This document shows, piece after piece, positions 21,441 to 49,017 of a DNA stretch of 49,312 nt. Position 1 is the first letter of the stretch; the number at the start of each line of letters is the position of its first letter. Where the stretch lies: NCBI GenBank assembly GCA_002308955.1, contig DBWJ01000046.1, positions 1 to 49,312 on the forward strand. The letters run 5' to 3'. Source of the stretch: Lachnoclostridium sp. UBA1241. Lineage in GTDB: Bacteria; Bacillota; Clostridia; Lachnospirales; Lachnospiraceae. Under the pieces are notes generated by a model. It saw nothing but the letters and a program-made list of their open reading frames with translations, was not told where the DNA came from and made no database searches. The position numbers and the translations under genes were made by a program.

Positions 21441-23051
21441 TTACACGTTCTTCACGTCCGAATCCACAACTTCCACAGCGGCAGCTTCCTCAATTATTTC
21501 TTCCGCTATTTCTTCTGCGGCGGAAACTTCCTCAGCTATTACCTCTTCCGCTATTTCATCCGCATCGGGGTCTGCGATCACATTTTCCGCAATCAGGTCT
21601 TCTGCCGTGATCTCGGCGGAGGGTTCCGATGTGCCATCAAAGTCGTCCGTAAGGTCTTCCGCAAGGTCCTGCACCAGTGTCTGGTTGCTTTCCTTCACGA
21701 GAACCGCGCCGGGCGTTGTGATGTATGCTGAGGTGTCCTTCGGCAGGTTCTTCTCCACGAGTCTCACTTCAAGGTAAGACTTCAGGATCGAGTATACAAG
21801 GGCGAAGGTCGGAACCGCAATCAGCATTCCGAGAATACCCCAGAGTTTCGAGAACATCGTACATGCAAGGAGTACGTAAATCGGCTTCATGCCGACCTTC
21901 TTGCCGACAATGTGCGGATCCAGGTAGTTTCCGTCGAACTGCTGCAGCACAAGGATGAACGCCGCGAAGATCAGTCCGTCAAGCGGGTGTACGCAGAAAA
22001 TCAATAACGCACAGGGAATTCCTCCGATGAACGGTCCGAAGAACGGAATGACGTTCGTCACGCCGACTACGATACTTACAAGGCCTTTATACTGCGCGAT
22101 ACCTTCGAAGAAGATACCGAGGATGTTCGCTCCGATGAAACAGAGCATTCCGATAACCGCCGAGTCGAGAATCTTTCCGAGGATTGCCGTCGAGAAGATT
22201 CCGTTGGCCTTATGGAGCGTCTGCACCGTTACCTTTGCGGTCTTCTTCGGGAAGACTGCGAAAATGATCTTCTTGGCAAGACCGATCAGGTACTCTTTAT
22301 CCTTCAGCATATAGATAGCGAAGATGAGACCAATCAGCAGATTGAAGACGAGCTTCAAGGTTGCCGTAACGGCGTTCTTCAGAAGTCCGGCGGACATCGT
22401 CATGATGTCGGTCAGCCGGTTCTTCAGGAAATCTTCGAGGCCCTTCGTGAAGTTCTCGATAATCGGTGTAAGCGCGTCTTCAACAACCTTATTCCTTGCT
22501 ATGAGTTTCTCCATGAATTCACGGAGATATTCACCGTATTCAGGCAGGTTCTCAATCAGGGTGCCGATACTTGAAAGGAATTCCGGGATGATTGCGACGA
22601 ACAGGAGAACGAACAGCGTCAGCACCATAAAAACGGTGATCAGAATCGCAAATCCGCGGGAACGTCCGCGAACGCGGGCTTCTTTCTTCTCCGGCGTCTC
22701 ACCCTTCTTTGCCTTCCGGTTCATTCCGAGCCGGATGAAATGCTTTTCCAAAAAGCGGACAATCGGGTTCATCAAAAAGGCGATGCAGAAGCCCCAGATT
22801 GCCGTGGATATTGCCCCGACAAATCTCTTAAGTCCTGCGGCTACAGACGGAAGAGAATGCAGAAAATAATAGAATAAAAGCGCTCCTACAAGCACCAGAA
22901 AAGCCGCGGCAGCCTGTCCGCGGTATGCGCGTGCGCGGGAGAAGGCTCCCTTCAGCCCTTTCCGCTCCTTTCTTCTGCGTGACTGTTTGAAATCGTCGTC
23001 ATTCGGCGTTTCTTCCGTCACTTCCTGCTCCTGAAGTTTTTCGTCGTCCAT
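21441..23051 (-). CDS. AI-2E family transporter (UPF0118/PerM-like) with an acidic repetitive C-terminal tail
   Basis: Polytopic core with VIPFFGPFIGGIPCALL. C-terminal tail reads EEIAEEVIAEEVSAAEEIAEEIIEE. Confidence 0.85.
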   Translation of the reverse strand: MDDEKLQEQEVTEETPNDDDFKQSRRRKERKGLKGAFSRARAYRGQAAAAFLVLVGALLFYYFLHSLPSVAAGLKRFVGAISTAIWGFCIAFLMNPIVRFLEKHFIRLGMNRKAKKGETPEKKEARVRGRSRGFAILITVFMVLTLFVLLFVAIIPEFLSSIGTLIENLPEYGEYLREFMEKLIARNKVVEDALTPIIENFTKGLEDFLKNRLTDIMTMSAGLLKNAVTATLKLVFNLLIGLIFAIYMLKDKEYLIGLAKKIIFAVFPKKTAKVTVQTLHKANGIFSTAILGKILDSAVIGMLCFIGANILGIFFEGIAQYKGLVSIVVGVTNVIPFFGPFIGGIPCALLIFCVHPLDGLIFAAFILVLQQFDGNYLDPHIVGKKVGMKPIYVLLACTMFSKLWGILGMLIAVPTFALVYSILKSYLEVRLVEKNLPKDTSAYITTPGAVLVKESNQTLVQDLAEDLTDDFDGTSEPSAEITAEDLIAENVIADPDADEIAEEVIAEEVSAAEEIAEEIIEEAAAVEVVDSDVKNV

Positions 23052-23100: not shown

Positions 23101-23232
23101 CCCGGCCCTGTCCGGGAATCTGACTATCCCGGTTCCGTCCCGGGAATTGAATCGTCCCGGCCCTGTCCGGGAATCTGACTATCCCGGTTCCGTCCCGGGA
23201 ATTGAATCGTCCCGGCTCAGTGCCGGAATCGT
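23101..23232. repeat. Tandem 55-bp repeat (2 identical copies plus a degenerate partial copy) made of short CCCGG..CCGGG hairpins
   Basis: 23101..23155 and 23156..23210 are identical. 23211..23232 is degenerate. Each unit contains two CCCGG-N6/7-CCGGGAAT sub-units. Confidence 0.9.
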
Positions 23233-23243
23233 TTTATCTCCTG

Positions 23244-23891
23244 TTATGCCCAGGGATTGGCTTCGTTGGCCGGGCGGATTCCCATCAGGAGTCCCTGCCA
23301 GGTATGAATGAACCACTCACCCGTGGACGGTTTCGTGCGAAGCGTTACCTTGCGGTCGTTGTCCGCTCCGCCGCTCGGAATGTAAAGGCTTACATAGCCC
23401 TCGTTCCGGGTATCGTAGCTGTACGGATTGTCGTGAACCGTAATTCTATAAGGAAGCTCAGGCGTGTAGTTGTTCTGCGGAGTCGCGCCCTTGAAGTAGG
23501 ACTTCACGGTGTACTTCGCGCTCTCCATGAACTGGTTCCGGATCAGCTGCTGGTCAATCACCGCAACGGCATCCGGGCCGTTCAGCCAGTCCATCATCCG
23601 GATGCACTCGTCCGGATTCTCTTCATATACGTTGAGGGCGAGAACCGTAAGCGCCGCCGTCTCGAAGAAATCCTGCGGGCTTACCTGCAAAGCCTTCAGC
23701 TCCTCAAGCGTCTTCGGAAGGGCGTTGTAGGTAAACTCCCTGGTAAGCATGGTATAGTTCTTGACAGCCTGGTTCACCGCCTGATTGACTTCTCCGGCAA
23801 CCTGATTCACTGCCTTTCGCTCCGCCTGGTTCACAACCTGCCTCGTAATGGCTTCTCCGGTTCTCTTCAGAATGCTGTCAAATAATCCCAT
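23244..23891 (-). CDS. Hypothetical protein, last gene of the SPFH/zinc-ribbon operon
   Basis: 215 aa. N-terminal amphipathic repeat region MGLFDSILKR...VNQAERKAVNQVAGEVNQAVNQAV followed by a globular part. I recognise no family. Confidence 0.6.
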   Translation of the reverse strand: MGLFDSILKRTGEAITRQVVNQAERKAVNQVAGEVNQAVNQAVKNYTMLTREFTYNALPKTLEELKALQVSPQDFFETAALTVLALNVYEENPDECIRMMDWLNGPDAVAVIDQQLIRNQFMESAKYTVKSYFKGATPQNNYTPELPYRITVHDNPYSYDTRNEGYVSLYIPSGGADNDRKVTLRTKPSTGEWFIHTWQGLLMGIRPANEANPWA

Positions 23892-23971: not shown

Positions 23972-25267
23972 TTATGCCATCGGCTTGCCGCACTGCGGGC
24001 AGAACTTCGGGCTCTCGCCCTCGGGTGCCTGATATCCGCAGGAACCGCAAATCGCCTTCTTGGCTTCGGGCTTCTTCGTTCCGCAGTTGGTGCAGAAGTT
24101 GCCGTTTACTTCCTGGCCGCAGGTCGGGCAGGTCCAGCTTCCTGCAGGAGCGGGCTTCTTGGCGCCGCAGTTCGTGCAGAAGTTACCGGTTGCCGTAGCG
24201 CCGCAGTTCGGACAGGTCCAGCCGTTCTGAGCGGGAGCCTGCTGCTGTTGCTGCTGAGCACCCATAGCGTAAAGGTTGGCTGCGGTATTCGCTCCGCCGC
24301 CCATGCCGTTCACCATGCCAACGCCCATAAGACCGGCTGCTGCGCCGTTCGGGTTCTTGGCTGCGGCAACAACTGCCTCGGCCTGTGCGCCGATGGTAGC
24401 TGCAGCGCCCATCGTAGGATCACGGTACATAGCGTTACGCTGAGCAATCTTGATCATCTCGGCATCCTCATCCGGAAGGGTAACGGTACCGAGTGCTACG
24501 TTAACAACATTCAAACCGCGGAAGCTGCCCCATTTTGCGGAAAGAACTTCGTTCATGGCTTCCTCAAGGTCTGTGTTATGAGCAATAATCTGGTTCGGAC
24601 GAAGCTCCATATCGGAAAGCTTTGCAAGAGCCGGCTGAAGGGCGCTGATGAACTCGGTCTTCAGCATATTGTCAAGCTCGGAACGACGATATTCGCCGGT
24701 TACATTTCCGCAAACGTTCGTGTAGAACAGAAGCGGATCTGCGATTCTGTAGGAATATACGCCTGCGCAGCGAAGGGATACGTCTACGTCAAGACCGATC
24801 TTGGAATCCACAACACGGAACGGAACCGGATTCGGGGTACCGAATTTGTTGTCCAGGATTTCCTTGGTGTTGAAGTAGTAAACTCTCTGATCCTTTCCGG
24901 TGTCACCGCCGTAAGCGAAACGCTTTCCGATGGTCTTGAAGGTGTTCAGAATGCCCTGGCCGAGGCCGCCGGTGAAGATACTGGGCTCGGTGGAAGCGTC
25001 CCATGTGAATTCGCCGGGCTCTGCGCAGAACTCAACAACCTTACCCTGCTCAACAATGATCATGGCCTGGCCGTCTGCTACGGCGATGCCGGATCCGTTC
25101 GAGATAATGTTGTCGTTGCCCTTCGTGTTGGAGGAACGGCTGCCGATCTGCTTCTGGCCCTTGGTAACCAGAACGTCCTTATCCATTGCTTCGCAATAGA
25201 AGAACTCCTTCCACTGATCCGCAAGCGTGCCGCCTGCCGCACCCAATAAAGCTTTGATAAGTCCCAT
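23972..25267 (-). CDS. SPFH-superfamily protein of the YdjI ('virion core protein-like') type with three C-terminal zinc ribbons
   Basis: N-terminus MGLIKALLGAAGGTLADQWKEFFYCEAM...IISNGSGIAVADGQAMIIVEQGKVVEF is YdjI-like. C-terminal ribbons: CPNCG..FCTNCG, CPTCG..FCTNCG, CGSCG..FCPQCG. Confidence 0.8.
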   Translation of the reverse strand: MGLIKALLGAAGGTLADQWKEFFYCEAMDKDVLVTKGQKQIGSRSSNTKGNDNIISNGSGIAVADGQAMIIVEQGKVVEFCAEPGEFTWDASTEPSIFTGGLGQGILNTFKTIGKRFAYGGDTGKDQRVYYFNTKEILDNKFGTPNPVPFRVVDSKIGLDVDVSLRCAGVYSYRIADPLLFYTNVCGNVTGEYRRSELDNMLKTEFISALQPALAKLSDMELRPNQIIAHNTDLEEAMNEVLSAKWGSFRGLNVVNVALGTVTLPDEDAEMIKIAQRNAMYRDPTMGAAATIGAQAEAVVAAAKNPNGAAAGLMGVGMVNGMGGGANTAANLYAMGAQQQQQQAPAQNGWTCPNCGATATGNFCTNCGAKKPAPAGSWTCPTCGQEVNGNFCTNCGTKKPEAKKAICGSCGYQAPEGESPKFCPQCGKPMA

Positions 25268-32135: not shown

Positions 32136-32975
32136 CTATAGTTCTTCGCTCCTTAATTGCTCCAACCGTTCACTCGGAGAGTCCCACTCTTCGGGCAGTT
32201 CCTCCTCGTGAGCAATCAGGACGGAATAGGCGCTTTCAAGCGTCTCCCGGATGGATTCCCGCTCGTCCTCGTCATCACTTTCATGAAAGGACTGCTCGGC
32301 GATGTTAATCAGATCGTACAGAACCGAATATTTTTCCACAGAAAACGGCTCCTGAGGGGTGGTTGTGGCATCCGGCGAATCGCCTTGCGCTGCTTTCTCC
32401 GAAGAGGAATCCGTCGGTACTTTCGCACTCTCCCGAATCTCCCGCGCCCGGTACTGTTTATAAGTCAGTCTTCGTACAAGGAAAAGGACCAGACAGCCGA
32501 TTCCTGCGAAAAGAACCGGGTTTTTAAGATCAGCAGGCAGGTCCGAAAGGAACGAGAGCTGCTCCGGCAGATCGGGCTGCAGGGCAATGACGCATTCCAT
32601 TCCGAACAACACTAGGATTACAAGAAGCAGCAGAACATCCACCGGTCCGAAGCGCCGCCTCGTAAAATCCACCCTGGGCATCAATTCGACCTGCAAGGAT
32701 TCCGCAAGCTCGATCGCGCCCTTGGTGAAGGTGGAATTGGTCATGACGATGGCGCGGTCGCATCCGTAATAGGTGGTGGCTGCATATACCTCCTGCACGG
32801 CCTTGTTTCCGACCGGCGACCGGTAGTATTTGCATTGCACCGCGCACTTTTCCTTCTTCCGAAAAGCAATGATGTCCGCTCCCTGATCCCTGCTCGCCTG
32901 CGTCACGGAAACGTCCCGAAAGCCCTTCTTTCGAAGGTACTCCGCACAGGCCAGTTCATATTCATATCCGTTCAT
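32136..32975 (-). CDS. Mrr-type restriction endonuclease domain protein with two transmembrane helices and an acidic C-terminal region
   Basis: Mrr_cat-like N-terminus: YELACAEYLRKKGF...DQGADIIAF...AVQCKYYRSPVGNKAVQEVYAA...AIVMTNSTFTKGAIELAE. TM helices VDVLLLLVILVLFGMECVIAL and VLFAGIGCLVLFLV. Only a 2-nt gap to the upstream rSAM gene. Confidence 0.75.
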   Translation of the reverse strand: MNGYEYELACAEYLRKKGFRDVSVTQASRDQGADIIAFRKKEKCAVQCKYYRSPVGNKAVQEVYAATTYYGCDRAIVMTNSTFTKGAIELAESLQVELMPRVDFTRRRFGPVDVLLLLVILVLFGMECVIALQPDLPEQLSFLSDLPADLKNPVLFAGIGCLVLFLVRRLTYKQYRAREIRESAKVPTDSSSEKAAQGDSPDATTTPQEPFSVEKYSVLYDLINIAEQSFHESDDEDERESIRETLESAYSVLIAHEEELPEEWDSPSERLEQLRSEEL

Positions 32976-32977
32976 AT

Positions 32978-34018
32978 TTACTTATCCATAGCGCTTGCGC
33001 ACCGGGGTGCCTCATACAGCTTCCCGTGCACGAAGAAATTGTAGGAACGGCAGCCGCCCGCGCAATACGCACCGTGTTTGCAGTCGGCGCAGGGCCCGGT
33101 CAGCATGCTTCTTTTGAATTTGCGGTTATACGAAAAGCCGTCCGGATTCTCCCAGATCTCGCGAAGGCTCTTCTTTCGGAGGTTGCCCTCGTTGAACCGC
33201 TCATCGTACATCGATTCGCAGCCGCGTACATTTCCGATGCTGTCGATTCCGACGGCGGAAATCCCGGCGCGGCATCCCGCGAAGACGGCCTGTCCGCTCA
33301 TGTTTCCGCGGATGCTGCCCTCCTCCGGCGTAAAATACCCGATATTGTCGGCGACTCCCAGAAGGAACGGCGCCGTACGCATATTCGTATCGACAAATCG
33401 GATGACCTCCCGCGGGTCAAACGCGTAATCCACGCCGTTGTTCGCCGCATTTCCCATCGGCGAACATGCCTGCAGTTGCCAGGCGAAAATCGGGTACTGT
33501 TTCAAGGTTTCGTATAGTTCCGGAAGCTTAGGGACATTCTCCCGGTTCAGCGTACTGATCACGGAAACCGGAATTCCGCTCTCGCCGAGCACCTGAATCG
33601 CCCGGATGGCGCGGTCGTAACTGCCCTCCTGGCGGTACTTATCGTGTACCTCGCGGGGTCCGTCCAAAGAAACCGAAACGGATTCGATTCCGACTTCCCG
33701 AAGGTCATCAATCAGGTTATCCGAAAAGAGAAATCCGTTGGTGATGATGTTGACGCGGACGCCGTTCTTCGTAAGGCGCGCGGTAATTTCCTTCCAGTCC
33801 TTCCGCATGAACACTTCGCCGCCGATCAGCGATACGCGGCGGCAGCCGAGTTCCGCAAGCCAGTCCGCGACATTCAGGCACTCCTCTGTCGAGAGTTCTC
33901 CTTCACGGGCGCGTCCGCCGCGGGAACCGCAGTACTTGCATGAGAAGCAGCAGGCAAGCGTAATTTCCCACACGCATCTTCTAAGCTTAAACTTCATAAT
34001 CCGGTGTCGGCTCAGCAA
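32978..34018 (-). CDS. Radical SAM / SPASM domain protein
   Basis: CxxxCxxC cluster in ITLACCFSCKYCGS. C-terminal SPASM pattern: FAGCRAGISAVGIDSIGNVRGC...GNLRKKSLREIW...CADCKHGAYCAGGCRS. The start is either TTG 34018 (GGAGGGGG upstream, overlapping the preceding stop) or ATG 33997. Confidence 0.85.
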   Translation of the reverse strand: MLSRHRIMKFKLRRCVWEITLACCFSCKYCGSRGGRAREGELSTEECLNVADWLAELGCRRVSLIGGEVFMRKDWKEITARLTKNGVRVNIITNGFLFSDNLIDDLREVGIESVSVSLDGPREVHDKYRQEGSYDRAIRAIQVLGESGIPVSVISTLNRENVPKLPELYETLKQYPIFAWQLQACSPMGNAANNGVDYAFDPREVIRFVDTNMRTAPFLLGVADNIGYFTPEEGSIRGNMSGQAVFAGCRAGISAVGIDSIGNVRGCESMYDERFNEGNLRKKSLREIWENPDGFSYNRKFKRSMLTGPCADCKHGAYCAGGCRSYNFFVHGKLYEAPRCASAMDK

Positions 34019-34509
34019 AGCGCCGTGCCGCCCCCTCCGTTCAGAATGTTTTTATAGCCGCAATAAGGGCAGAAACGGGCGGTTTTCGGGAATTTCCCGC
34101 CGCACATCGAGCAGAAGCACGTATCCTCGCTCGGTTCGGGATCAGCCTCCGGCTCCGCAGGAGTCCTCGGCCCGCCGTTGAAAGGATTCGGAAACGGCGG
34201 TGCCGCATATACAAGCATCATCGAAGGTCCGTTTCCGTTGAGGCCGGACATCTGCTGCGGGCCTGCCGGACCTGCATAAACCGTCATCATGGAATTCATC
34301 ATCGGGTTCATTCCGGGACCTGCATAGGCCATCAGCATCGAAGGATCGTCAAACCGCGGATTCCTCCGCCACTTTTCATTCTCCTCCTCAAGCTCTACAA
34401 CGTTATCCGGATATTCCTTCTTCTCCTCAGCGCTCACTTCTTCCGTGTTCACTTCTTCGGTGTTCACTTCCTCAGTGTTCACTTCTTCATTCCTCAATTC
34501 ATCGTCCAT
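34012..34509 (-). CDS. Acidic repeat protein with a C-terminal zinc ribbon
   Basis: ATG 34509 is preceded by AAAGGAGAAGG. The longer ORF to 34728 would overlap rsmA. Features: EEVNT repeats, three S-M-x-x-x-Y-A-G/A-P motifs, and CSMCG..CPYCG. Confidence 0.6.
   Translation of the reverse strand: MDDELRNEEVNTEEVNTEEVNTEEVSAEEKKEYPDNVVELEEENEKWRRNPRFDDPSMLMAYAGPGMNPMMNSMMTVYAGPAGPQQMSGLNGNGPSMMLVYAAPPFPNPFNGGPRTPAEPEADPEPSEDTCFCSMCGGKFPKTARFCPYCGYKNILNGGGGTALC
34430..34489. repeat. Four in-frame 15-nt tandem repeats inside the Zn-ribbon protein gene
   Basis: Units are gcgctcacttcttcc, gtgttcacttcttcg, gtgttcacttcctca and gtgttcacttcttca. They encode (E)EVNT/EVSA repeats on the minus strand. 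Confidence 0.85.
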
Positions 34510-34583
34510 AGCCTTCTCCTTTCTTTCCGGGGCTGCTTCCCGGCTGTTTCGGCAGCTTTCCGTTTGTATGGCATTTTCCGTTC

Positions 34584-35450
34584 TTATCGCATCTTCCCGA
34601 GCGCGTCCGCAAGCCGCGCAAAATCTGACAGCGTCAGCGTTTCTCCCCGGACCGTCGGAGAGAAGCCGAGCTCGGCAAGCGCTTCCGTCACCTGCTCCTT
34701 CGTAACCGTAAGCTCCTGCGCGTTGCAAAGTCCGTTCACAAGAGTCTTGCGGCGCTGGTTGAACGACGCGCGGATCAGGGCGAACATCAGCTTTTCATCC
34801 TGCACCGAAACCGGCGGCTTATCGTGCAGGGTGAGCCGTATCACCGCCGAGCCGACATTCGGGCGGGGCATGAAACAGTTCGGCGGGACATTGGCCGCCA
34901 GGTAGGGCTCCGCGTAGTACTGCACGGCCAAAGAAAGCGCGCCGTAGTCCTTCGTTCCGGGACCGGTTTCCATCCGCTCCGCAACCTCTTTCTGGACCAT
35001 AACCGTGATGCTTACGACCGGAAGCCTTTCTTCGAGAAGCTTCATAAGAATCGGCGTCGTAATGTAATACGGCAGGTTGGCAACCACCTTGACCGGGCGG
35101 AAGCCGTATTCGAACAGAACGTCTCTGAGGTCAAGCTTCAGAATGTCCTCGTTGATGACGCGGAGGTTTTTATAATCCTTACAGGTATCGCCGGTCAGGA
35201 TCGGGATCAGGTTCCGGTCAATCTCGACAGCGATCACGTCGCCGGCCTCCTCGCAGAGGCGCTGCGTCATCGTGCCGATGCCGGGACCGATCTCCAGAAC
35301 CACGTCGTCCTTCGTAATCTCCGCGGCCGCAATGATCTTGTCCACCACGTGCCCGTCAATCAGAAAGTTCTGTCCGAATTTCTTCTGAAAATTGAATTGA
35401 TACCGCTGTAAAACCGCTATGGTTTCCTTCGGATCGCTTAAATATGCCAT
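34584..35450 (-). CDS. rsmA: 16S rRNA (adenine1518/1519-N6)-dimethyltransferase
   Basis: KKFGQNFLIDGHVVDKII, VLEIGPGIGTMT and ANLPYYITTPI motifs. Confidence 0.93.
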   Translation of the reverse strand: MAYLSDPKETIAVLQRYQFNFQKKFGQNFLIDGHVVDKIIAAAEITKDDVVLEIGPGIGTMTQRLCEEAGDVIAVEIDRNLIPILTGDTCKDYKNLRVINEDILKLDLRDVLFEYGFRPVKVVANLPYYITTPILMKLLEERLPVVSITVMVQKEVAERMETGPGTKDYGALSLAVQYYAEPYLAANVPPNCFMPRPNVGSAVIRLTLHDKPPVSVQDEKLMFALIRASFNQRRKTLVNGLCNAQELTVTKEQVTEALAELGFSPTVRGETLTLSDFARLADALGKMR

Positions 35451-45257: not shown

Positions 45258-46532
45258 TTGAATAAACAGAAGATCATCTCAATTGTATCCTTCGTTGTGA
45301 TTATCGCTCTGCTTGCAGTCACGCGGATTTACGGCGGAGGCCGCTCCAACGGGAATCCCGTGCCCGGCTCCGAGCCCGGAACGACCGTAACGCCGACCGA
45401 TGCTCCGACGCCTGTTCCGACGACGCCCGCGACACCGACTCCCAGTCCGGTACCGACCGATACGCCGACGCCCACTTTGAGCCCGACTCCGACGGCGACG
45501 CCTACACCGACCATGCCGCCGGTACCGACGATTGCCCGGGAATATACGGACGCCGCGAAGGCCGTCCTTGAAACCATGACGACCGACGAGAAGATTTACC
45601 AGCTCTTCCTCGTGACGCCCGAGCAGCTGACCGGCGTCTGGCCCGTCACCAATGCATATGATAAAACGAAAAATGCCATCCGGCAGAAACCGGTGGCAGG
45701 TATCGTATACGCCTCCCAGAACATCGTAGACCAGGGCCAGGTAATGCGGCTCCTTAGTAACAGCCAGGGCTACTCGAAGTTCGGCATGTTCCTTACGATT
45801 CACGATGAAACCGGCTCCCTGACGAGCCTTGCCGGAACAAGACGCGTCCGGAAGCCTTATGAGATCGGCAGCACCGGAGATACGAACAAGGCGTTCGAAA
45901 CCGCCGTTTCGCTCGGTACCGACCTTCTGAAGCTCGGCTTCAACCTGAACCTTTCTCCGACGGCGGACATCACCGTGAACGGCACCTCCTTCGGTTCCGA
46001 CGCGGAGCTTGTGGCCGGAATGGTAGAGGCTTATGTAAAAGGCGGTCTTTCGGTGGGAATGCCCAGTGTGCTGTGCCATTTTCCGCTGCCGGTCGCAGAC
46101 CGGAACGAGCGGACGCTCGAAGAGCTCCGTGAGGCGGAATTCAAGACCTTCACGGTCGGACTGGTTGCCGGCGCATCCTTCGTAATGGTAGGCTATACCG
46201 ACATGGCGGCGCTTTCCGAAACCGGACACCCGGCCTGTCTGAATCCGGATGTCATCGGCGTGCTCAGAAACGAGCTCGGATTTAACGGAATCGTCATGAC
46301 CGAGGCGCTCGATGCCAAGGCGATTACCGCACAGTACAACGCAGGCGAAGCCGCCGTTATGGCTATCCAGGCGGGGGCCGATATCATTTACCGCCCTGCC
46401 GATCTGATTGCCGCGGCAAATGCCATCCGTGACGCCCTCAACGACGGAACCCTCAGCGAAGAACGGCTGAATGAAAGCGTGCTTAGGATCCTTTCCGTCA
46501 AGGCGCAGTTCGGAATTTTGAAGGAGCAGTAA
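45258..46532 (+). CDS. Membrane-anchored glycoside hydrolase family 3 N-terminal-domain-like protein (NagZ-like fold, non-canonical catalytic motifs)
   Basis: TTG 45258 lies 9 nt after AGGAGG. TM helix IISIVSFVVIIALLAV. Pro/Thr-rich linker. GH3-like body: IHDETGS, FNLNLSPTAD, CHFP, LRNELGFNGIVMTEALD, AGADII. Confidence 0.75.
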   Translation: MNKQKIISIVSFVVIIALLAVTRIYGGGRSNGNPVPGSEPGTTVTPTDAPTPVPTTPATPTPSPVPTDTPTPTLSPTPTATPTPTMPPVPTIAREYTDAAKAVLETMTTDEKIYQLFLVTPEQLTGVWPVTNAYDKTKNAIRQKPVAGIVYASQNIVDQGQVMRLLSNSQGYSKFGMFLTIHDETGSLTSLAGTRRVRKPYEIGSTGDTNKAFETAVSLGTDLLKLGFNLNLSPTADITVNGTSFGSDAELVAGMVEAYVKGGLSVGMPSVLCHFPLPVADRNERTLEELREAEFKTFTVGLVAGASFVMVGYTDMAALSETGHPACLNPDVIGVLRNELGFNGIVMTEALDAKAITAQYNAGEAAVMAIQAGADIIYRPADLIAAANAIRDALNDGTLSEERLNESVLRILSVKAQFGILKEQ

Positions 46533-46574
46533 GTTTAGGCTTCCGGCCGCCGAGGCGCGGTACGGAATTCAAGC

Positions 46575-46638
46575 AGTAAGCTTCGGTTTGGGAGTTATGA
46601 AAATGAAGTAACCTCCGGTTTCGGAGTTATGAATAAAA
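46575..46638. repeat. 32-bp tandem duplication upstream of the 46661 gene
   Basis: agtaagcttcggtttgggagttatgaaaatga (46575..46606) and agtaacctccggtttcggagttatgaataaaa (46607..46638). Confidence 0.7.
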
Positions 46639-46660
46639 AACAAAAAGGAGAACCAATCAC

Positions 46661-47308
46661 ATGGACAACGAAATGACCCAGCAGAATGCGGACGGCGTCC
46701 TTGCCACTTGCATCAGCAAAAAGAACGACAAGACCCCTGTAGTTTTCTATGCGGACCGGATGAACTTCAAGGGGGAGACCATCCTGTACAGCGATGTTGA
46801 GACCATCAGATTTGCCAGCAGTCATACCGCTTACAGCCTCATTTTCGAGACCTATTCCGGAATCTGTAACCTCCGCCTGAAGGACGGTCGGAAGCTGAAA
46901 TGGAGAACCGGTTCCTGGGGCTTCCTTGGAATCCACAGCATTAAGCGCAAGAAAGAACTCTACAGCGAGTTCTTCAGAGCAATCCTTGCAACGGTTGCCA
47001 AGAAAATTGCCGCGGATTACATCTCCCAGATTAAACTCGGCGGAACCGTTAAGATCGGCGGAATCACCCTTACGCCTACCGAAATCAGCGGAAAGCATGC
47101 CATGAAGAGCATCACGCTTCCGTACAGCGAAATCAGCGGCGCCAACCTCAGCTCCGGAAACATTTACGTCAACAAGGTTGAGAAGAATCGCTCCGCTTTC
47201 AACGGAATGCCCTTAAGCGTTGACAACGCTATCTGCCTCCTCTACATCGTTAACTCTCTTTGCGGCGTAGAGACGAATCCCGATGAGGCTGCACAGGGCA
47301 ACGCATAA
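46661..47308 (+). CDS. Hypothetical protein
   Basis: 215-aa ORF. AAAGGAG RBS lies 10 nt upstream. A strong terminator follows. I recognise no family. Confidence 0.6.
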   Translation: MDNEMTQQNADGVLATCISKKNDKTPVVFYADRMNFKGETILYSDVETIRFASSHTAYSLIFETYSGICNLRLKDGRKLKWRTGSWGFLGIHSIKRKKELYSEFFRAILATVAKKIAADYISQIKLGGTVKIGGITLTPTEISGKHAMKSITLPYSEISGANLSSGNIYVNKVEKNRSAFNGMPLSVDNAICLLYIVNSLCGVETNPDEAAQGNA

Positions 47309-47355
47309 TTGCGCAGCCGGTAGTTTGAAGCTCAAAACCGAATACTTGATGAAAA

Positions 47356-47387
47356 GGGCCTTTCGCTTGTCAGCGACGGCCCTTTTT
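47356..47387 (+). terminator. Rho-independent terminator
   Basis: GGGCC-UU-UCGCU-UGUC-AGCGA-C-GGCCC followed by UUUUU. Confidence 0.75.
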
Positions 47388-47416
47388 GAATGCGAATGAT
47401 AATCTGATTTTTGACC

Positions 47417-47450
47417 ATCCGGTCCCTTTTGGAACCGGATGTTGTTTTTC
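47417..47450 (+). terminator. Second hairpin with a U-tract; its arms resemble the core of the downstream repeat array
   Basis: AUCCGGUCCC-UUUU-GGAACCGGAU followed by GUUGUUUUUC. Confidence 0.45.
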
Positions 47451-47457
47451 TGCCTTC

Positions 47458-47740
47458 CAATTCCAGTCTTCCGATGGTTCTTTGGAACTGAGAGCAAGAT
47501 TATCCCTTTTCAGTTCCAGTCTTCCGGCGATTCTTTGGAACTGAAAGCAAGATTATCCCCTTTCAGTTCCAGTCTTCTAGTGGTTCTTTGGAACTGAAGG
47601 CAAGATTATCTCTTTTCAGTTCCAATCTTCCGACGATTCTTTGGAACTGAAAGCAGGTTTTACTCTTTTCAGTTCCAATCCTACAACAAATCCCTGGAAC
47701 CAAAGGCAAGTTTTCCGCTTTTCGGTTCCAGTATATTAGC
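47458..47740. repeat. Tandem array of 5 full units plus 1 partial unit with an exact 53-nt period; each unit carries the 12-mer CTTTCAGTTCCA and its reverse complement
   Basis: Units at 47458, 47511, 47564, 47617 and 47670, with a partial unit from 47723. Sequence similarity decays toward the right. The array is intergenic between convergent genes. Confidence 0.9.
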
Positions 47741-47780
47741 AAAACCGATCCCCCACAAAAGAGCCTGAAAGCACAGAAGC

Positions 47781-47825
47781 GACAACGAGGGCCCATCGCA
47801 CTCGGTGCGACAGGCCCTCGTTGTC
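47781..47825 (-). terminator. Long hairpin downstream of the 47839..49017 gene
   Basis: GACAACGAGGGCC...GGCCCUCGUUGUC (13-bp arms) with an inner hairpin UCGCAC-UCG-GUGCGA. The U-tract on the minus strand is only moderate. Confidence 0.55.
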
Positions 47826-47838
47826 AGTCTATGTAGTT

Positions 47839-49017
47839 TCAGAACAGCTTCTCTTCGACATTCGAAAGCGATTCGGCGGCTGTCTCGGCAACCGTTTCAG
47901 CAGCAGCTTCCGTCGTCTCCGTTACGGCCTCAGCTGCAGTTGATGCAGTCTCTGCGGCGGCATCCGTTACGTCTTTTACTGTCCCGTTTAAGAAAGCGTT
48001 TACTTCATCTTCCGTCACATTCAAGGCGTCAGCTGCCGCATCAGCGGCCTTCGCGGCTGCCTCTTCGGTTGCTTCTGCCGGATCGTCATACTTGGCGAAA
48101 GGAAGCGGTTCTTCAGGTTCCTCTGCAGGAACTTCAGCGGGCGCCTCCGCAGTGGTCTCAGCGGATGCTTCGGCCGATACCTCGGCGGGTGCTTCAACAG
48201 AAGCCTCAACAAGTGCCGCTACGGGTGCCTCAGCAGGTGTCTCCGCCGGTGCCGTATTCACGGAAGCCGGAACTACCGGCTGTTCAGGTGCTGCCGGTTG
48301 TACGGGCGCTGCTTCCGGCTGCGTAGGATTCTTCGCTGCCTTCACCGCTGCCGCTTCATCAAGTCGTAAATCCATCCACTTGGCACCAAGCAGAACGATA
48401 AATGCCATCGGGATATATGCTATAAATCCGTCACACGGGAATTGATACCGGTCAATTGTATCGCTCCAGCTCTCCGCCGACCATTCCTTCGTAAGAAGCG
48501 GAAGAACGTCAAGCGTGATGCTTAACAGAATTCCGAGAATGATTGACGAGCGCATCAGGATGGTGAAGATGCCTGTGGCATTTGCCGCGCGAAGCAGCAG
48601 GAATGCGCCAATCAGCATGAACAGAAGCACCAGTCCGGTGATGGTGCTGCAATAGATGAGTCCGGTAATCCGCATGTCGCCCCAGGACCACTTGATGCCC
48701 TTGTTGTCGTGAATCCAGCGGTAGGTATAGATGCCGAACTCCGCCGTAACAAGCAGTGCGCCGAGGAAGAACAGGAACCGGTTATTGCTCACCATCGAAA
48801 GGAACAGCACGAGAAGTGCCGCAATAACCATTAACAGAGATACTGTAGACAGGCGGATGTCCTTGTCGAAAAACTCCCTGAGCGCCTTCAGAACGGATAT
48901 GTCTTCCGATTTCGCCGTGTACAGAACGGCATAAACAAACGAATACGCCAGCTGCACGAAAAGCAGAAGGAAGCCGAAGGATAGTACATATGAATACTTT
49001 TTACTCTTAACTGTCAT
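47839..49017 (-). CDS. Polytopic membrane protein with an Ala/Glu/Pro-rich low-complexity C-terminal region
   Basis: 392 aa with about 7 hydrophobic helices, followed by AEAPAEV-type repeats. I recognise no family. Confidence 0.65.
   Translation of the reverse strand: MTVKSKKYSYVLSFGFLLLFVQLAYSFVYAVLYTAKSEDISVLKALREFFDKDIRLSTVSLLMVIAALLVLFLSMVSNNRFLFFLGALLVTAEFGIYTYRWIHDNKGIKWSWGDMRITGLIYCSTITGLVLLFMLIGAFLLLRAANATGIFTILMRSSIILGILLSITLDVLPLLTKEWSAESWSDTIDRYQFPCDGFIAYIPMAFIVLLGAKWMDLRLDEAAAVKAAKNPTQPEAAPVQPAAPEQPVVPASVNTAPAETPAEAPVAALVEASVEAPAEVSAEASAETTAEAPAEVPAEEPEEPLPFAKYDDPAEATEEAAAKAADAAADALNVTEDEVNAFLNGTVKDVTDAAAETASTAAEAVTETTEAAAETVAETAAESLSNVEEKLF

Follow-up and report, generated by a model that had tools for sequence, protein, structure and literature searches.

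A copy-number-variable minisatellite of hairpin units between convergent genes in a Lachnospiraceae species

Introduction

Clusters of repetitive extragenic palindromes (REPs) are known as bacterial interspersed mosaic elements (BIMEs), and the BIME-2 clusters of Enterobacteria, Xanthomonas and Stenotrophomonas combine arms of alternating orientation with two types of linker, run head to tail and lie in extragenic DNA 3' of genes (PMC2817692). These clusters, like the tandem REPIN clusters of Pseudomonas, vary in length between strains, and the hairpins predicted for them could affect termination or the 3' ends of mRNAs (PMC2817692, PMC3116915). Here we analysed an array of 53-bp hairpin units in Lachnoclostridium sp. 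UBA1241 (assembly GCA_002308955.1), a member of the Lachnospiraceae. The array was studied in contig DBWJ01000046.1, positions 1 to 49,312 of the forward strand; this whole stretch of 49,312 nucleotides is referred to below as the window. The array lies at 47454-47731 between the convergent genes 46661-47308 (plus strand) and 47839-49017 (minus strand), which agrees with the convergent intergenic location given in an initial annotation of this DNA.

The array shares with BIME-2 clusters its alternating arms, its two linkers and its head-to-tail order 3' of genes. It differs from REPs in other respects: a genome with REPs has over 100 of them in dispersed positions, each an imperfect palindrome of 20-40 nt with a conserved head, whereas this array was found at one locus only, in the 49-kb window and in a metagenome scan, and its 12-nt arms are not palindromic. 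No RAYT gene is present among 30 proteins of the window, and the host is a Firmicute. A second comparison is offered by the BOX elements of Streptococcus pneumoniae (boxA-(boxB)n-boxC), also from a Firmicute, which have unique ends around variable internal modules of ~45-53 nt; these modules are predicted stem-loops, are enriched downstream of genes and vary in copy number between strains (PMC3049150). The block that contains our array likewise has unique ends and n internal modules (n = 5 or 3). BOX elements, however, are interspersed chromosome-wide, end in inverted repeats and are believed to be mobile, whereas this block was found at a single locus and has the duplicated halves of a terminator as its ends.

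The mycobacterial interspersed repetitive units of Mycobacterium tuberculosis (MIRU-VNTR, where VNTR stands for variable-number tandem repeat) are a third comparison, with intergenic tandem units of ~50 bp, whole-unit differences between strains and a use as strain markers. MIRUs occupy ~40 loci, lie within operons and carry small open reading frames (ORFs). In contrast, the unit of our array is a hairpin, found at one locus and in a convergent intergenic region. The results below show that the feature is, with little doubt, a hairpin-unit VNTR, that is, a minisatellite of variable copy number. Overall, we consider it on balance probable that the array is a single-locus VNTR of this kind which lies in a 3' untranslated region (3' UTR) and has a role in cis.

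Results

The array is a head-to-tail repeat of one palindromic unit

Tandem Repeats Finder reported the array at 47461-47732 with a period of 53, 5.1 copies, 81% matches, 0% indels and a score of 311, and a repeat search of the window gave start-to-start spacings of 53, 53, 53 and 53 for successive units. We place the unit starts at 47454, 47507, 47560, 47613 and 47666, with a terminal arm at 47719-47731. The exact 53-nt period and the five units plus a partial sixth described initially were thereby reproduced, the earlier start at 47458 being another phase of the same repeat. Each unit consists of an arm of 12 nt, 17 nt, an inverted arm of 12 nt and a further 12 nt; the same unit can be described as a 38-nt stem-loop (13-bp stem, 12-nt loop) with a linker of 15-17 nt. 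Both linkers are conserved from unit to unit, and the simplest description of the array is a direct head-to-tail repeat of one palindromic unit. The arms are less uniform than first stated. The 12-mer CTTTCAGTTCCA is exact in one unit only and TGGAACTGAAAG in two, with 1-2 mismatches in the remaining units, and only the cores GTTCCA and TGGAAC are invariant. Rather than about 10 half-sites, 13 arms were counted when the terminal arm and a related hairpin upstream of the array were included. Similarity between units falls off toward the right end of the array, as had been observed before.

The array is far above chance. Within the window, 12-mer matches with at most one mismatch were confined to it, as were matches to a covariance model of the unit at E 5e-16 or better. 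The whole array region folded far better than shuffled sequences on either strand (z = -6.8 and -7.5), a result that is uninformative on strand. Both pairing registers folded about equally, whichever strand was used; hairpins of intact central units reached -14 to -19 kcal/mol each, and the degenerate end units gave weaker ones. Two mutually exclusive registers do exist, as proposed in the initial annotation, but they reflect no special design: they are automatic, because the arms of a tandem palindromic unit can pair with either neighbour.

The array is also non-coding, as originally proposed, because 53 is not a multiple of 3, because gene callers run on more than 15 contigs never called a gene over it, and because the ORF that crosses it is broken by indels. 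This ORF (77 aa, minus strand, 47563-47796) is disrupted by a 1-nt indel in one strain (L044) and by a 106-nt deletion allele.

Strains of one species carry five, three or no units

Searches for identical proteins, together with a single pattern scan of metagenomes, yielded a strain sample of over 20 independent metagenome contigs, all from one species and from this locus; for the 392-aa and 424-aa proteins of the window, the search for identical proteins gave no matches. Three alleles were found in the species, with five units (5.1), three units (3.1) and the block missing (0). Five copies are the commonest state, and the five-unit array was present with very few single-nucleotide polymorphisms (SNPs) in the window, L011-14, L030, L034, L042, L044, L049 and L050/51. 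L042 and L049 belong to the metagenome-assembled genomes GCA_016286655.1 and GCA_024692745.1, respectively. The three-unit allele (L045-48) is shorter by exactly 106 nt (2 x 53); it lacks the two internal units at 47507-47612 of the window, and its breakpoints lie inside an identical arm. In the empty allele (L020-23, L052), the intergenic region measures 97 nt and contains one perfect bidirectional hairpin, GGGCCTGTCGCAC-TCG-GTGCGACAGGCCC, with a U-tract on the minus strand. The array is therefore absent from closely related strains, an outcome that the initial annotation had named in advance as evidence against its proposal. Five units are present too in L038, a diverged strain with only 77% identity in the right-hand gene; its units 2-5 are rearranged and two of them are near-identical, which indicates unit turnover.

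These results place the array among VNTRs: the unit runs head to tail and falls within the range of ~10-100 bp, strains differ by whole units (five versus three), and the sequence is non-coding. Unit number may change through replication slippage or unequal recombination. Of the earlier suggestion of a recently expanding minisatellite, the minisatellite was supported by the 5.1-, 3.1- and 0-unit alleles and the 106-nt step. The "recently expanding" part was unsupported, because the units are only ~81% alike, five copies prevail and are found even in L038, and every change observed was a contraction or a loss.

Outside the species, the array was absent from sister species at 84% and 77% flank-protein identity, and their intergenic sequence is unrelated. 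In the sister species at 84% identity, the same position holds an unrelated 73-nt tandem repeat with the inverted repeats GCATGCC..GGCATGC. One of its contigs (L028, 2138-2416) has one copy more than another (L024, 4652-4857), with intergenic regions of 279 and 206 nt, respectively. It would seem that a variable hairpin repeat arose independently at this site.

A duplicated terminator bounds the accessory block

The array belongs to an accessory block of 433 nt (47361-47793), which is present in array-bearing alleles and missing from the empty ones, as delimited by comparison of L020-L023 and L052 with the window. No strand is assigned to the block, to the array or its missing internal units, or to the leader, upstream hairpin and tail described below. 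To the left stands the terminator hairpin T1, GGGCC..GGCCC (47356-47387), made of a hairpin at 47356-47382 and T5 at 47383-47387. With A4 immediately upstream (47352-47355) and T5 downstream, T1 has a U-tract on both strands; its fold energies are -16.3 kcal/mol (plus) and -17.8 kcal/mol (minus). To the right, an inverted-repeat search found T2 (47781-47825, minus strand), a hairpin of 21-22 bp just 3' of the stop codon of the minus-strand gene. T2 folds at -41.9 kcal/mol (minus) and -36.9 kcal/mol (plus), and in the window allele neither of its strands has a U-tract.

The T1 arms GGGCCT(T/G)TCGC and GCGAC(A)GGCCC also occur in the single terminator of the empty alleles. T1 and T2 are paralogous, with arms related to each other and to that single hairpin, and by this comparison the 433-nt block is bounded by a duplicated terminator. 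Strains either have the whole block or lack it, and the breakpoints fall within the GGGCC arms that T1 and T2 share. Loss of the block could occur by recombination between T1 and T2, whose GGGCC arms would allow precise removal.

Between T1 and the array lies a unique AT-rich leader (47388-47415), which is near-invariant across strains, with one SNP among 7 five-unit alleles and an identical sequence in diverged L038. It is followed by a degenerate first hairpin, CATCCGGTCCC-TTTT-GGAACCGGATG (47416-47441), whose arms of 11 nt (47416-47426 and 47431-47441) are 91% complementary. This is the related upstream hairpin of the initial annotation, which was correctly identified; it folds at -20.4 kcal/mol (minus) and -16.4 kcal/mol (plus), it is invariant in all alleles, and in its right arm the array arm can be recognised in diverged form. 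The unit covariance model matched this region weakly (47419-47473, E = 0.09). A unique tail (47732-47780) leads from the array to T2, with 2 SNPs and 1 indel among the 7 alleles.

Two further observations were made at T2. Its plus-strand C.A mismatches (47794-47795 and 47811-47812) are minus-strand G.U pairs in all array-bearing alleles, and the empty allele (L020, 3178-3206) has TG at the equivalents of 47794-47795, giving a perfect Watson-Crick stem. This difference looks like a compensatory change, with one hairpin serving both genes. The stretch from T2 to the stop codon (47818-47837) exists in two unrelated versions, TCGTTGTCAGTCTATGTAG and TGCTGCCATAATTCTATTTGA.TTCCATCAG (window, L030, L038, L049). 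Only version TCGTTGTCAGTCTATGTAG pairs with GACAACGA (47781-47788), which lengthens the T2 stem, and such lengthening is consistent with a template-switch, quasi-palindrome extension of the hairpin.

The block shows low diversity and conserved stems

Mismatches to the consensus were counted in ten units from two strains, which are not independent of one another, and amounted to 15/240 in arms versus 55/290 in loops and linkers (Fisher p = 1.5e-5). Across 47356-47735 (380 nt), 6 segregating sites were found among 7 five-unit alleles. The adjacent gene had, in the same 7 alleles, 11 segregating sites among 92 four-fold sites, 21 among 216 third positions and 31 among 648 sites overall, so that the block differed from it at p = 4e-5, 1e-5 and 0.008, respectively. 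SNP density in the block is ~7-fold below that of four-fold sites in this neighbouring gene. The block forms a sharp local minimum of diversity, bounded at ~47300 and ~47750, in several backgrounds, and the neighbouring intergenic region 46533-46660 is hypervariable. In L038, the segment 47339-47550 (T1, leader, first hairpin and first two units) is 97.6% identical, whereas the flanks are far more diverged. Because the stems are better conserved than the loops and SNPs are ~7-fold fewer, some constraint on the block is likely. Low diversity together with stem conservation fits purifying selection, and would hint at a role at the RNA level.

The rival explanation that survives best takes the array as a functionless by-product of a hairpin-prone intergenic region, built by tandem duplication through slippage or template switching, with its low diversity marking a young recombining allele. 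Presence/absence and copy-number polymorphism within a single species are what it predicts, and the unrelated, copy-variable 73-nt repeat at the same position in sister species without the array speaks for it as well. The same is true of a second, unrelated hairpin array at 23101-23230, which suggests a general mutational tendency, and of the scattering of empty strains in the flank tree, so that recombination moves alleles. A neutral origin accounts poorly, however, for the ~7-fold deficit of SNPs relative to four-fold sites, for a sharp diversity minimum shared by several backgrounds, and for stems more conserved than loops. Nor does it readily explain why diverged L038 kept five units, with a left half 97.6% identical against 77% for the flanking gene. 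The sharp boundaries of the minimum would argue, mildly, against the young-allele explanation. We regard neutrality as unlikely, while giving it more weight than any other alternative considered below.

The terminator layout suggests that the array lies in a minus-strand 3' UTR

Because T1 has a U-tract on both strands, the plus-strand gene should stop at T1, before the array. T2 lacks a U-tract, and transcription of the minus-strand gene 47839-49017 probably continues across T2 and the array until it ends at T1. The array would thus probably form a structured 3' UTR of this gene, ~480 nt long. On the question of strand, this layout appears more informative than the promoter search. Plus-strand C.A mismatches correspond to minus-strand G.U pairs in T2, in the upstream hairpin and in the first unit, and the first unit folds at -12.8 kcal/mol on the minus strand versus -7.9 kcal/mol on the plus strand; in these folding models the G.U pairs fit a minus-strand 3' UTR. 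Strand assignment from G.U versus C.A asymmetry was nevertheless dropped as a criterion of its own, since its outcome was mixed. An extended -10 motif, TGCTAATAT, found by hand on the minus strand at ~47736-47744, was also dropped because it is not conserved in L038.

A different RNA-level explanation is a multi-hairpin RNA that acts in trans, as a small RNA (sRNA) either derived from the 3' UTR or transcribed independently, which would titrate an RNA-binding protein in the manner of the CsrB/RsmZ sponges or act through repeated seeds. Terminator hairpins do bound the block, and T1 has its U-tract on the minus strand. The most conserved part of the block is the minus-strand 3' end, consisting of units 0-1, the upstream hairpin, the AU-rich leader and T1. 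A conserved 3' end with a terminator is the typical layout of 3'-UTR-derived sRNAs. Like CsrB, RsmY and RsmZ, the array offers many repeated stem-loops within a few hundred non-coding nucleotides, with GGA in most loops of one strand (7/10 minus-strand loops of the window). GGA is not conserved at orthologous loops (6/10 in L038), and its copies descend from one ancestral unit and are not independent evidence. Unlike the sponge RNAs, the array has loops of 12-17 nt and units that are clear recent duplicates. No sign of an independent transcription unit was found, as no promoter-like site was detected in 46500-48200 and the sole -10-like motif is lost in L038. Nor does the array belong to a curated family: Rfam gave 0 matches at the gathering threshold for the whole window, and only miRNA/snoRNA-type noise for 47300-47850 at E up to 5. 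A structured multi-hairpin RNA, one of the roles first suggested, may still exist at the locus. No homologue was found in any other species, and the block is dispensable in wild strains. We therefore give a trans-acting RNA only a small chance. A slightly smaller chance still is left for its specific form, a multi-hairpin regulatory RNA tuned by copy number, from the 47839-49017 mRNA or independent, that titrates an RNA-binding protein. If it were true, 5, 3 or 0 units would set the dosage of a regulatory RNA, and a Lachnospiraceae population of the rumen/gut would be naturally polymorphic in its expression.

Searches found the array at one locus

With its filters off, the unit covariance model found nothing outside the array in the 49-kb window, all other matches having E > 2, and it gave no match at the loci examined in relatives. 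When species-representative genomes and viral contigs were scanned for the arm-pair pattern, the outcome was nothing, or chance single hairpins that were mostly terminators after stop codons. A metagenome scan of the whole collection for the inverted arm pair in the 17-nt-spacer register found the array in three contigs, all of them this locus, two of the three coming from deposited metagenome assemblies; its other matches were single hairpins. The 20-mer of the upstream hairpin matched genome contigs of unrelated phyla only, and the 433-nt block had no blastn match in phage and plasmid collections.

These searches bear on the possibility that the array is a local cluster of a dispersed mobile repeat family, such as REP/BIME-2, a REPIN cluster, or a BOX-like A-Bn-C composite miniature inverted-repeat transposable element (MITE) inserted in a terminator. 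Its architecture matches BIME-2 (PMC2817692), and unique end modules around variable internal ones resemble BOX elements (PMC3049150). A contrast of filled and empty sites is seen at a hairpin, and the block ends share a weak inverted similarity, GGCCyT(T)CG(C)TTGTC. The duplication of the terminator as T1 and T2, however, accounts for these "terminal inverted repeats". Moreover, no further copy exists in the window, the metagenome scan returned the array from this locus alone, no transposase or RAYT gene is encoded in the window, and the arms are neither palindromes themselves nor provided with a GTAG-type head. A mobile origin is accordingly very unlikely.

Least probable of all is a double-stranded DNA-binding platform, in the form of an iteron, centromere or nucleoid-protein array on TGGAAC/GTTCCA half-sites phased every 53 bp: the 6-bp cores are invariant in every unit, 53 bp is ~5.05 helical turns and no clear RNA-strand signature is seen, but the array sits on a housekeeping chromosome without rep, par or recombinase genes in the window, has no match in plasmid or phage collections, is missing from certain strains of the species, and has neighbouring half-sites with centres spaced 24 and 29 bp (2.3 and 2.8 turns), which do not lie on one face. 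To our knowledge, no dimer geometry fits gaps of 12 or 17 nt. Because of these spacings, only arms of the same orientation are in helical phase, and the initial proposal of sites on one helix face holds for them and fails for neighbouring arms. The iteron or centromere role it also offered was not borne out: besides the features just listed, the half-site geometry is unlike that of known iterons. The array behaves like an ordinary variable minisatellite rather than like a replication or partition site.

Several other candidates were tried and rejected. A clustered regularly interspaced short palindromic repeat (CRISPR) array was discarded since both linkers are conserved between units and no cas domains occur in the scanned window proteins. 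A partition centromere (parC, parS) or iteron has no adjacent rep or par gene, the neighbours being ABC transporters, GH3, a two-component system, TatD, KsgA and AsnRS. No unit has an inverted linker, as an invertible promoter or shufflon would require. A cre-like match (TGGAACTGAAAGCA versus TGNAANCGNWNNCA) was judged by eye and lacks the central CG. A DnaA-box-like TTATCCC, a transposon end and a small-protein gene at the array were likewise considered by eye and rejected.

Genomic context

The left flanking gene (46661-47308, plus strand) is an ORF for a 215-aa protein of unknown function and served as the anchor for finding orthologous loci. Pfam gave only a sub-threshold PH-like match for it, and its homologues are all Lachnospiraceae proteins from metagenome-assembled genomes. 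The right flanking gene (47839-49017, minus strand) is an ORF for a predicted membrane protein of 392 aa with an Ala/Glu/Pro-rich, hypervariable C-terminal tail and no Pfam family. Variants of this protein are 389-415 aa long, 24-nt repeats occur in the tail, and nucleotide identity between strains over the corresponding part of the gene (47839-48400) is 77-90%, versus 96-99% in neighbouring genes.

The 30 window proteins scanned against Pfam are encoded by ordinary chromosomal (housekeeping) genes, including ABC transporters, a GH3 hydrolase, a two-component system, TatD, KsgA, galactokinase, AsnRS and GGDEF/EAL proteins. No replication (rep), partition (par), transposase, RAYT/IS200-like, recombinase or cas domains were found among them, and no tRNA or transfer-messenger RNA (tmRNA) genes were found. 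A gene for an Mrr-type restriction endonuclease (32136-32975, minus strand) adjoins a radical SAM/SPASM gene (32978-34018, minus strand).

Other tandem repeats occur in the window. The second, unrelated hairpin-unit array at 23101-23230 has a period of 55, a 94% match and two subunits of 27/28 nt, each formed by CCCGG-N6-CCGGG and an AATyTGA.. linker. It sits between the stop of a DUF6935 gene (23244-23891, minus strand) and the start of an AI-2E transporter gene (21441-23051, minus strand). Its presence suggests a genome prone to palindromic-unit minisatellites. Two repeats lie within ORFs: a 15-nt unit in 3.7 copies with a 90% match (34434-34489) in an ORF for a zinc-ribbon protein (34012-34728, minus strand), and an 84-nt unit in 1.9 copies (24067-24222) in an ORF for an SPFH/zinc-ribbon protein (23972-25267, minus strand).

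Discussion

The array is a palindromic-unit minisatellite that changes by whole units, within a block whose ends are the two copies of a terminator. For a function, we propose that stacked hairpins in the 3' UTR work in cis, where they would hold up 3'-to-5' exonucleases and insulate the convergent genes from each other. Elements of the REP/BIME type have been shown to play this part in other bacteria. The proposal rests on analogy with REP/BIME elements, which have been reported to bind proteins and affect termination (PMC2817692), and is tentative: a cis role is quite possible, though short of probable when taken by itself.

Several points weigh against the explanation as a whole. A scan of 46500-48200 found no sigma-70-like promoter. 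Wobble-pair asymmetry within the array is mixed, several stems folding better on the plus strand, and does not settle the RNA strand. The 21-bp stem of T2 may terminate transcription without a U-tract, in which case the array would not be transcribed. The three-unit and empty alleles show that the block is dispensable in wild strains, and its low SNP density could reflect a young allele spread by recombination. The direction of change, gain or loss of the block, is given differently by two analyses: in a ranking by flank identity the empty strains stand among filled ones, suggesting that the empty allele is nested, whereas a neighbour-joining tree of the flanks has one empty strain basal. Because the empty strains are not monophyletic in this tree, the allele would have moved by recombination, or been gained or lost more than once. 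Finally, the array is single-locus and not dispersed as far as can be tested, the limited test being the 49-kb window and the collection scans rather than a complete species genome.

If the explanation we prefer, a single-locus hairpin-unit VNTR in a 3' UTR with a cis role, holds, the locus adds one more bacterial intergenic hairpin minisatellite, of use mainly as a strain marker (0, 3 or 5 units) in an uncultured Lachnospiraceae species, and the finding opens no long-standing question. As a kind of element the array is ordinary, in an organism from which few of its sort have been described; REP-like systems are poorly described in Clostridia. The locus is a clean natural example of a filled and empty site pair at a terminator, of duplication of a terminator hairpin and of whole-unit slippage. 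Strains with 5, 3 and 0 units would provide a natural allelic series for stacked 3'-UTR hairpins, with respect to mRNA stability and the insulation of convergent genes in Clostridia.

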